From Naegleria gruberi (taxonomy: Eukaryota): DNA of 1,245 bases. The translations under genes and the position numbers were made by a program. The number at the start of each line of letters is the position of its first letter. The first letter of the stretch is position 1. The notes below the pieces were generated by a model. That model did no database searches and was not told where the DNA came from. It saw only the letters and a list, made by a program, of their open reading frames with translations. Shown piece after piece: positions 1 to 758 of this stretch. The stretch lies in the NCBI GenBank assembly GCA_000004985.1, contig GG739481.1. One strand, 5' to 3'.

Positions 1-147
1 CAAGAGGTTGTCAGTAAGCTTATCAGGATAAGAAATAATGCAAATAATACGAGTGGAGCAAGTGATTTATCAATTATTGTGTCACCAAGTTCGCCCAGGT
101 ACGAGAGTACCGTTGTTCTTTTTGGGGATCCTCCAAAACAAGAATAG
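1..147 (+). CDS. Possible 3' end of an upstream + strand gene. Frame 1 is open from the window edge (…QEVVSKLIRIRNNANNTSGASDLSIIVSPSSPRYESTVVLFGDPPKQE*) and the stop TAG is at 145-147.
   Basis: There are 48 stop-free codons in frame 1, whereas frames 2 and 3 hit stops within 30 nt. The composition is mixed and not low-complexity. An AATAAA at 235-240 lies about 90 nt past the stop. The evidence is only ORF length and context, with no recognisable domain. Confidence 0.25.
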   Translation, partial: QEVVSKLIRIRNNANNTSGASDLSIIVSPSSPRYESTVVLFGDPPKQE

Positions 148-267: not shown

Positions 268-279
268 TCATATTTAATC
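268..279 (+). promoter_or_regulatory. TATA-like element (catatttaatca) about 50 nt upstream of the ATG at 326. It is a candidate core promoter of the secreted-protein gene.
   Basis: This is an AT-rich TATTTAA motif at a spacing appropriate for a short 5' UTR in a compact eukaryotic genome. It is weak evidence on its own. Confidence 0.2.
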
Positions 280-325
280 AAACGAGATTTACATTCTCCA
301 AAACAAATCAAAACTAAAAAACAAA

Positions 326-385
326 ATGAAACAAATCATTGCCATTCTGTTAGTTCTCTTATTTGCAGCTTGCACAGTGTATTGT
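326..385 (+). other. Predicted N-terminal signal peptide (about 20 aa). Cleavage is probably near CTVYC|S.
   Basis: Lys at position 2, a 12-residue hydrophobic core (IIAILLVLLFAA) and a small-residue/Cys c-region. No further hydrophobic segment follows, so the product is predicted soluble and secreted. Confidence 0.6.
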
Positions 386-682
386 TCAACTGATTCTTAT
401 ATTGCTTCATCTTATGCATATCCATACGCTTATCCATATTCATATGGAGGATATGGAGGATATGGAGGATATGGGGCATATGGAGGAGCAAATTGCTATC
501 CGCCAGTTGCTTCTACTTATGCCTATGCTGTAGCTCCAGTTACCTATGCTGCTCCTGTGGCTGCAACCTATGCAGTCGCTGCACCAGTTGCCACTTATGC
601 AGTTGCTCCAGTTTCATATGCAACTCCAGTAAGTTATGCAGCTCCGTATGCTTACCCATACGCCTATGCCAGACCTTGCTAA
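326..682 (+). CDS. Small secreted Tyr/Ala/Gly/Pro-rich repetitive protein, 118 aa. Complete ORF from ATG at 326 to TAA at 680-682. Likely a structural, matrix or wall-type protein.
   Basis: The ORF is uninterrupted and has an A-rich, Kozak-like context (aaaacaaaATGa). The N-terminus MKQIIAILLVLLFAACTVYC is a textbook signal peptide with a basic n-region, a hydrophobic core and a small/Cys c-region. The mature part is low-complexity with an ordered layout: SYAYPYAYPYSY, then (GYG)x4, then about six APV(A)(A)TYAV-type units, then PYAYPYAYARPC. The parallel frame (493..798) gives a Cys/Ser-rich nonsense string, as expected for a shadow frame. Confidence 0.7.
   Translation: MKQIIAILLVLLFAACTVYCSTDSYIASSYAYPYAYPYSYGGYGGYGGYGAYGGANCYPPVASTYAYAVAPVTYAAPVAATYAVAAPVATYAVAPVSYATPVSYAAPYAYPYAYARPC
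443..487 (+). repeat. In-frame 9-bp tandem repeat, tatggagga x5 with one variant copy (tatggggca), encoding the (Y-G-G) block.
   Basis: The nucleotide sequence reads tatggagga at 443-451, 452-460 and 461-469, tatggggca at 470-478, and tatggagga at 479-487. Confidence 0.9.
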
Positions 683-752: not shown

Positions 753-758
753 AATAAA
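753..758 (+). promoter_or_regulatory. AATAAA polyadenylation hexamer for the 326..682 gene, 71 nt downstream of its stop codon and 34 nt upstream of the tRNA.
   Basis: The motif aataaa sits in the 3' flank of the secreted-protein gene. Its position implies a 3' UTR of roughly 90-105 nt ending just before the tRNA gene. Confidence 0.4.

Follow-up and report, generated by a model that had tools for sequence, protein, structure and literature searches.

The window analysed here, a 1,245-bp stretch of DNA with 37% GC, contains a single complete open reading frame (ORF), which runs from ATG to TAA at positions 326..682 of the plus strand and comprises 118 codons before the stop. An earlier note, made from the letters of this DNA, had claimed an ORF of 118 residues at 326-682, and both the ORF listing and a reading of the sequence bear it out. 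The encoded protein begins with the features of a secretory signal peptide, and the chain predicted to follow is built of ordered blocks of short repeats, the bulk of which is alanine (Ala), proline (Pro), valine (Val) and tyrosine (Tyr). The product is tentatively interpreted as a self-assembling matrix or wall protein that would be secreted and cross-linked through Tyr and cysteine (Cys), an interpretation drawn by analogy with a convergent class of proteins and not from membership of a family.

The coding frame and its signal peptide

The ATG of the ORF is the first one after an upstream in-frame TAA at 275-277. The GC content at codon positions 1, 2 and 3 (GC1, GC2 and GC3) amounts to 0.54, 0.58 and 0.19, respectively, compared with 0.25-0.32 in the flanking non-coding DNA; the high GC1 and GC2 are set by the choice of amino acids, and the low GC3 tracks the AT bias of the genome. 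Divergence among the internal repeats follows the same frame. Among the six P-V-[TS]-Y-A cores of the protein, the pairwise differences number 5, 5 and 34 at codon positions 1, 2 and 3, and the two copies of the heptapeptide YAYPYAY (nt 413-433 and 647-667) are separated by 3 nucleotide differences, all at third positions and synonymous. The claim that the two terminal caps, to which these copies belong, use different codon strings is correct, and the selection at the peptide level that had been read from it is supported by the restriction of the differences to third positions. Before Tyr, serine (Ser) is encoded by TCA in the fifth repeat unit and by AGT in the sixth, each one step from a threonine (Thr) codon (ACA and ACT), which indicates that a hydroxyl residue has been retained at this place. 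The stretch 326..682 is a genuine coding frame under peptide-level selection, and the ORF is very probably a real gene whose product is secreted; within the window, this gene shows no intron.

The possibility that the ORF is non-functional, a chance open frame through degenerate short-repeat DNA, has been weighed against these observations and is considered very unlikely. Repetitive DNA is often open in several frames, and ORFs of 56 and 101 residues do occur in the other plus-strand frames, together with ORFs of 51 and 39 residues on the minus strand. Shuffling the window under a Markov model yields an ORF that reaches 118 residues in 1.65% of cases, Markov sequences matched to the local composition contain a stop-free run of 119 codons in 0.4%, and the protein and its relatives are absent from ~15 billion predicted proteins. 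A chance frame would, however, leave several features unaccounted for: repeat divergence concentrated at the third positions of this very frame, a GC3 akin to that of AT-rich intergenic DNA beside high GC1 and GC2, and, outside the repeats, a textbook signal peptide. The ATG stands in an AAA-ATG context, with a TATA-like element upstream and an AATAAA downstream at plausible distances, whereas the ORFs in the other plus-strand frames start with TTG, which is not normal in eukaryotes.

The candidate TATA box (TATTTAA, 271..277, plus strand) was located by pattern search 55 bp 5' of the ATG, its putative function being read from position only. It is followed by an A-rich leader (299..325, plus strand) with CAAAA-type repeats, detected by Tandem Repeats Finder (TRF) with period 5 and as direct repeat D5, and ending in AAA-ATG. 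The underlying degenerate CAAAA/AAAACAAA repeat extends over 299-335 of the plus strand and so spans both the leader and the first codons; the 5' untranslated region is extremely A-rich, and the start context reads AAA-ATG-AAA. The candidate polyadenylation signal AATAAA (753..758, plus strand) lies 71 nt past the stop codon, where it may serve the ORF.

Two further features of the coding region have been examined and rejected. The GTAAGT donor consensus at 629-634 (plus strand, in Val-Ser codons) could be paired with an AG at 671-672, but it is regarded as fortuitous, since splicing there would delete the conserved C-terminal cap and shift into a frame running into the downstream tRNA gene. 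A second plus-strand frame is also open across the repeat tract (493-798), with a TTG start and a Cys/Ser/leucine(Leu)-rich product of 101 residues; this product has neither a signal peptide nor an ATG, overlaps the tRNA gene and is taken as a by-product of the repeat.

The signal peptide covers residues 1-20 (MKQIIAILLVLLFAACTVYC; 326..385, plus strand) and was recognised by hydropathy, by the (-3,-1) rule and by a predicted helix. It is tripartite, with MK as the n-region, a hydrophobic core of 13 residues and a c-region fitting the (-3,-1) rule, and the mean Kyte-Doolittle value of the h-region QIIAILLVLLFAA reaches up to 3.6 over residues 4-14. Cleavage is predicted either after C20 (VYC followed by S) or after C16 (AAC followed by T); both sites are compatible with the (-3,-1) rule, and both Cys16 and Cys20 sit in the c-region. 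A rule-based check for classical secretory signals thus finds a basic n-region, an h-region within the usual 7-15 residues and small residues at -1 and -3. The single-sequence AlphaFold model places a helix at residues 2-30, with a predicted local distance difference test score (pLDDT) of ~87 for residues 1-20. The clean signal peptide described in the earlier note is borne out by these rules, in both layout and cleavage sites, and by the modelled helix.

Block layout of the predicted mature chain

In the precursor, Tyr accounts for 24 of the 118 residues (20.3%) and Ala for 28 (23.7%), and in the 98-residue mature chain predicted after residue 20 the shares rise to 23/98 (23.5%) and 25/98 (25.5%). 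The values of about 23% Tyr and 25% Ala previously attached to the 118-residue protein are therefore right for the mature chain and too high for the precursor. The predicted mature chain has a mass of 10.1 kDa, an isoelectric point (pI) of ~5.5, a grand average of hydropathicity (GRAVY) of +0.18 and a net charge of ~0, with one aspartate and one arginine (Arg). Lysine (Lys), histidine (His), glutamine (Gln), glutamate, phenylalanine, tryptophan, Leu and methionine are missing from it altogether, and it carries neither an N-glycosylation sequon nor a dibasic site.

The repeats, all encoded on the plus strand, are arranged in successive blocks. The nine residues STDSYIASS (21-29) separate the signal peptide from the N-terminal cap YAYPYAYPYSY (residues 30-40; 413..445), in which six Tyr at alternate positions, (Y-x)6, form five overlapping Y-x-Y motifs. 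The cap is followed by the Gly/Tyr block GGYGGYGGYGAYGG (residues 41-54; 446..487), which holds all nine glycines (Gly) of the protein and reads (GGY)x3, GAY and GG; the (GYG)x4 reported earlier is a register variant of the same block. The linker A-N-C-Y-P (residues 55-59; 488..502), with the internal Cys57 at nt 494-496, leads to six Pro-delimited units of the form P-V-x(0-2)-[TS]-Y-A-x(0-5) (PV units; residues 60-106; 503..643). Their sequences are, in order, PVASTYAYAVA, PVTYAA, PVAATYAVAA, PVATYAVA, PVSYAT and PVSYAA, and an AAPV motif occurs at residues 75 and 85. The C-terminal cap PYAYPYAYA (residues 107-115), a second alternating-Tyr stretch of the form (Y-x)4, and the closing R-P-C occupy 644..679, so that residues 107-118 read PYAYPYAYARPC and Cys118 is the last residue. 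The heptapeptide YAYPYAY is found in exact form at residues 30-36 and 108-114.

Tyr residues are never adjacent and recur at regular intervals, every 2 residues in the caps, every 3 within the Gly block and every 6-9 along the PV units; the mature chain contains nine Y-x-Y motifs, two AAPV motifs and no YY. The only Pro-Pro pair is P59-P60, all other Pro being isolated. The repeat layout proposed in the earlier note stands as regards the two caps, the Gly/Tyr block and the six PV units, and its description as mirror-like is overstated, because the caps are direct copies of one motif and the Gly block is one-sided. The placement of Cys near both ends of the mature chain has to be corrected as well: Cys57, within CYPP where the Gly/Tyr block gives way to the PV units, is internal (residue 37 of 98), and only Cys118 is terminal. 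A type I antifreeze-like protein, Ala-rich with periodic Thr, was also considered for this layout and has been rejected, since Pro occurs every 4-11 residues between positions 60 and 117 and rules out a long helix.

At the DNA level the Gly/Tyr block corresponds to a 9-bp tandem repeat at 442-487 with 5.1 copies and 89% matches (TRF; direct-repeat family D3). It is the only block that is still repetitive as DNA, and it probably arose by a recent slippage expansion.

The order of residues was compared with that in composition-preserving shuffles of the mature sequence. At least nine Y-x-Y motifs were obtained in 0.8% of the shuffles, and a chain of at least six alternating Tyr in 0.28%; when a second chain of at least four was demanded in addition, the share fell to 0.02%. 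The complete lack of YY despite 23 Tyr was seen in 0.14%. Gly and Val are segregated into separate blocks: the confinement of all nine Gly to 14 residues was found in none of 100,000 shuffles, and that of all nine Val of the mature chain to 42 residues in 0.4%. The rarity of these arrangements in the shuffles points to an ordered block structure and not merely to a biased composition.

Neighbouring genes and type of genome

Downstream of the ORF, a gene for tRNA-Gly(UCC) is located at 792-862 of the plus strand (ARAGORN; Rfam tRNA model, 69 bits). Its discriminator base is A73, the CCA end is not encoded, the A and B boxes are canonical, and T4 runs lie at 868-871 and 875-878, the first of them 6 nt downstream; together these traits amount to the form of a eukaryotic gene transcribed by RNA polymerase III. 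The tRNA gene begins 110 bp past the stop of the ORF and lies 44 bp from the stop of a convergent gene, and this tight spacing to both neighbours indicates a very gene-dense genome.

The convergent gene enters from beyond the right edge of the window and occupies 1245 down to its stop at 906 on the minus strand (906-1245), encoding the C-terminus of a single-pass membrane protein. In it, an asparagine-rich ectodomain bearing the sequons NVT and NNS is followed by the transmembrane segment ILVIVLPIVVGGGVIVCAIVAFIIVALVV, by YRKRK as a stop-transfer sequence and by a tail of 31 residues. Pfam gives for it only a weak match to Syndecan (20 bits, below the cut-off) that is driven by the transmembrane segment, and no homologue is present in 5.8 billion clusters. 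A further ORF enters from the left edge (1-147, plus strand, frame 1, ending in VVLFGDPPKQE with its stop at 145-147), possibly as the 3' end of a third gene. Behind each ORF end comes an AATAAA: at 235 for the left ORF, at 753 for the complete one and at 910 (minus strand) for the membrane-protein ORF, whose stop it overlaps. In codon usage, all seven Gln codons are CAA and all seven Arg codons are AGA or AGG; set against the usual codon-usage figures, the former makes ciliate nuclear codes unlikely and the latter Caenorhabditis.

No Shine-Dalgarno sequence precedes the ATG of the ORF, and sigma-70-like sites number 5, against 5.1 in shuffles. Scans with exact patterns of the tRNA found no match in viral, metagenome or GTDB contigs. 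We conclude that the DNA is nuclear and comes from a gene-dense eukaryote with an AT-rich genome or, less likely, from a large virus infecting eukaryotes.

This context bears directly on a second reading of the N-terminus, in which MKQIIAILLVLLFAAC would be the lipobox signal (F-A-A-C) of a bacterial lipoprotein with a lipidated Cys16. The lipobox pattern is that of PROSITE PS51257, and FAAC at residues 13-16 (362-373, plus strand) does fit it, following a basic n-region and a hydrophobic core. The adjacent tRNA-Gly, however, has the A73 of a eukaryotic or archaeal type, no encoded CCA and T-runs after it; the ORF lacks a Shine-Dalgarno sequence, and sigma-70-like sites do not exceed the shuffle level. 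Moreover, neither an exact match to the tRNA nor a relative of the protein has been found in the genomes of 185,579 prokaryotic species (GTDB), blastn of the window against phages and plasmids gave nothing, and NCBIfam has no match for the protein. With the eukaryotic context and the lack of any prokaryotic match, a lipoprotein is extremely improbable here, though the FAAC motif fits. A prokaryote-oriented annotation pipeline would label the ORF a lipoprotein owing to this motif.

Relation to known Tyr-rich proteins and possible role

No homologue of the protein has been found. Word-indexed phmmer searches with the full and the mature sequence returned no homologue in 5.8 billion clusters up to E=10, and exhaustive phmmer against 1.84 billion representatives revealed no genuine relative. 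The sole match of the latter search, P0001 (E=4e-4), is a Kelch-repeat protein that aligned via the composition of 'IFGGY...' and has been discarded as spurious; in the PDB the only match was Keap1, with E=0.62. A Pfam scan at E<=10 gave no family, and PHROGs and NCBIfam gave no match. Exact-sequence look-ups did not retrieve the protein, back-translated pattern scans and tblastn detected no relative in viral, metagenome and prokaryote contigs, and a full-text search of the literature found no paper with the cap or PV-unit motifs. HMMER and BLAST correct for biased composition, so that relatives of very low complexity can score too low, but despite this correction an orthologue at moderate identity would have been seen. 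The statement in the earlier note that no confident family assignment can be made thus holds, whereas the families it named as examples (coccidian wall, insect chorion and cuticle, nematode proteins) have not been confirmed, their defining domains being absent according to Pfam. Only generic motifs are shared with such families, namely Y-x-Y, AAPV, GGY and Pro-bounded segments of Ala, Val and Thr.

Extensins and other Tyr-rich proteins of plant walls are, like the present one, secreted and repetitive and contain Pro and Tyr, and they share with it the Y-x-Y motif. In extensins, Y-x-Y gives rise to intramolecular isodityrosine, followed by peroxidase-driven formation of intermolecular pulcherosine and di-isodityrosine (PMC9842689). 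The defining Ser-Pro(3-5) motif of extensins is lacking here (no SPPP), and the protein is far smaller, has no Lys or His and shows no sequence similarity to them.

Eggshell proteins of trematodes offer a second comparison. That of Opisthorchis, a liver fluke, is Gly/Tyr-rich and contains GGYGGYGGYGGY stretches (PMC4014650), and for a rumen-fluke eggshell protein Y-x-Y motifs have been proposed as cross-link sites (PMC11727788). Trematode eggshell and vitelline proteins are likewise small secreted Tyr-rich precursors and harden by Tyr-derived chemistry. In contrast to the present chain, they are dominated by Gly, or else possess the trematode eggshell synthesis (TES) domain with Lys and His for dihydroxyphenylalanine (DOPA)-quinone chemistry. 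Here Gly makes up 9%, the bulk being Ala, Pro, Val and Tyr, and neither the TES domain (no Pfam match) nor Lys or His is present.

The insect eggshell contains small, repetitive Pro/Ala/Gly-rich proteins hardened by disulfides and then by peroxidase-made di- and tri-tyrosine (PMC13409908). These proteins and the low-complexity cuticle proteins resemble the present one in being small, secreted, repetitive and rich in Ala, Pro, Tyr and Gly; the YA-x-P-V spacing and the two AAPV motifs are reminiscent of the repeats in cuticle proteins (PMC5395146). Cuticle proteins that resist extraction are associated with AAP[A/V/L] motifs (PMC5395146). The two AAPV found here are weak evidence in a chain so rich in Ala, Pro and Val, and the motif defines no homologous family (PMC5395146). 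The Rebers-Riddiford consensus of CPR cuticle proteins (PF00379) is absent (Pfam, E<=10), as is the conserved hydrophobic VM domain, with its conserved Cys, of dipteran vitelline membrane proteins (Pfam; phmmer with 1.84 billion representatives), and no other chorion or cuticle domain of Pfam was detected. Tyr averages 4-9% in Anopheles cuticle families (PMC5395146) and is 2-3 times higher here; the dense gene spacing of the locus is also atypical of insects.

The coccidian oocyst and sporocyst wall proteins GAM56, GAM82 and EtSWP1 have in common with the present protein a signal peptide, disorder, regional enrichment of Tyr, a small number of Cys at strategic places and a lack of homologues beyond close relatives (PMC4776368). 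Unlike it, they are larger (EtSWP1 has 224 residues, with 7.1% Tyr), and their Tyr is found amid Ser or Lys, together with acidic regions (PMC4776368). In sequence they bear no resemblance to it.

Nematode NLP and CNC (caenacin) precursors are small and secreted and contain GGY-type repeats; in C. elegans these Gly/Tyr-rich peptides are induced by fungal infection (PMC2453101). On this model, which also includes GRSP, the ORF would encode the precursor of a soluble, secreted defence or signalling peptide rich in Gly and Tyr, an idea to which the small secreted precursor and its (GGY)n block lend some support. NLP and CNC peptides carry basic residues and processing sites. In the mature chain, by contrast, the charge is ~0, Arg occurs just once, Lys and His are missing, no dibasic site for processing is present, and the Gly block takes up only 14 of 98 residues, the rest consisting mostly of Ala/Pro/Val/Tyr repeats that are foreign to such peptides. 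As phmmer searches also found no similarity to the NLP, CNC or GRSP families, a defence or signalling peptide is held to be very improbable.

Suckerins, the proteins of cephalopod sucker-ring teeth, follow a similar overall logic. In these proteins, Pro-flanked modules of Ala, Val, Thr and Ser form beta-sheets beside GGY or GYG modules (PMC11931252); M1 modules measure ~11 residues and abound in Ala, Val, Thr, Ser as well as His, and M2 modules consist of Gly, Tyr and Leu. The block-copolymer design, the signal peptide and the high Tyr content are shared (PMC11931252), but the tabulated suckerins have 18-39 kDa, many tandem P[M1]P[M2] pairs, a His/Leu-rich composition and a pI of ~8 (PMC11931252). 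The present chain contains a single Gly block, lacks both His and Leu, has a pI of 5.5, carries alternating-Tyr caps and two Cys, and shows no homology to suckerins; its Pro-bounded segments of Ala, Val, Thr, Ser and Tyr are 5-10 residues long and do not alternate with the single GGY block. The dense gene spacing of the locus is also unlike that of a cephalopod genome.

The likeness to suckerins raises the question of whether the secreted protein would assemble without covalent Tyr links at all, as a beta-sheet network of the silk or suckerin type, a functional amyloid, an adhesive, or a coacervate in which pi-stacking and hydrogen bonds hold the chains together. The P[M1]P[M2] logic is recognisable in the Pro-bounded segments next to a GGY module, the uncharged chain is slightly hydrophobic, and suckerin beta-sheet networks are themselves held by hydrophobic contacts and Tyr stacking (PMC11931252). 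The shortness of the Pro-bounded segments, the single Gly/Tyr module and the lack of His speak against it, and the dense Y-x-Y motifs and the terminal Cys suggest, without proving, a covalent chemistry. Purely non-covalent assembly is thus judged unlikely as the whole explanation, though its assembly step is shared with the reading favoured here, that of a matrix protein cross-linked through Tyr and Cys.

With regard to this favoured reading, the protein is a new and apparently orphan member of a convergent class, the secreted Tyr-rich low-complexity structural proteins, and no family membership is claimed for it. By analogy with that class, its most likely role would be structural: it would be one of the units from which an insoluble layer outside the cell, for example a wall, shell, cuticle or sheath, is built. 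The composition of the mature chain narrows the possible chemistry. With no Lys, His or Gln, quinone tanning onto Lys or His and transglutaminase bonds between Gln and Lys, routes listed for cuticle (PMC5395146) and for fluke eggshell (PMC11727788), are unavailable within the chain, and Tyr and Cys are the sole residues for the usual covalent cross-links. Oxidative cross-linking of Tyr in a hardened matrix, as proposed in the earlier note, is plausible on the same analogy, and the chemical case is stronger than that note had it.

The events would proceed in the following order. The precursor would be translocated co-translationally and its signal peptide cut after C16 or C20. The Pro-bounded Ala/Val/Thr/Tyr segments and the alternating-Tyr caps may then pair as short beta-strands, leading to non-covalent self-assembly, with the alternation turning every Tyr of a cap to the same side of an extended strand and the (GGY)n block acting as a flexible spacer. 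Cys57 and Cys118 could form disulfides, either closing an intramolecular loop around the PV block or joining molecules into end-to-end chains. Finally, a secreted peroxidase or oxidase would couple Tyr residues into links of the dityrosine or isodityrosine type, favoured at Y-x-Y, and thereby produce an insoluble layer; the sequence of steps would be that of the insect eggshell (PMC13409908).

Several points weigh against this scheme. The function rests wholly on composition and motif analogy, with no homologue and no family signature in any search, and proteins of such low complexity form classes that are convergent and mixed in function. The near-perfect DNA repeat behind the GGY block may be a neutral product of slippage, and the signal peptide has been judged by rules and not by a trained predictor. 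The single-sequence AlphaFold model has a mean pLDDT of 54, falls below 50 over most of the repeats and is confident only for the helix of the signal peptide; the lack of confident structure past that helix would fit disorder and gives no support to beta-assembly. Lastly, no oxidase gene is visible in the 1.2-kb window, the neighbours being a tRNA gene and two unrelated ORF ends only.

A more far-reaching possibility, quite unlikely on present evidence, is that the protein is the first sampled member of a lineage-restricted family of very small 'tyrosine-zipper' wall proteins. Two (Y-x)n strands would here cap a Pro-punctuated beta-block and make up a minimal module able to self-assemble and self-cross-link. 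The family would originate from a gene-dense eukaryote of AT-rich genome that has not yet been sampled, or from a large, tRNA-carrying virus of eukaryotes. Such an origin would explain why neither the protein nor its neighbour is matched among the predicted proteins searched.

As it stands, the finding is an ordinary one: secreted structural proteins of low complexity that are specific to a lineage occur commonly in eukaryotic genomes, and the current understanding is not challenged. It would gain in interest were the source a virus or an uncommon lineage, or were the two-cap 'Tyr-zipper' to turn out to be a conserved module. If the favoured reading is true, the protein would be a natural block copolymer of 10 kDa in which Tyr and Cys are the only residues open to cross-linking. 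It would then offer a compact model for the assembly and hardening of Tyr-rich matrices, a possible template for protein materials and a possible marker of a wall, shell or cuticle stage.

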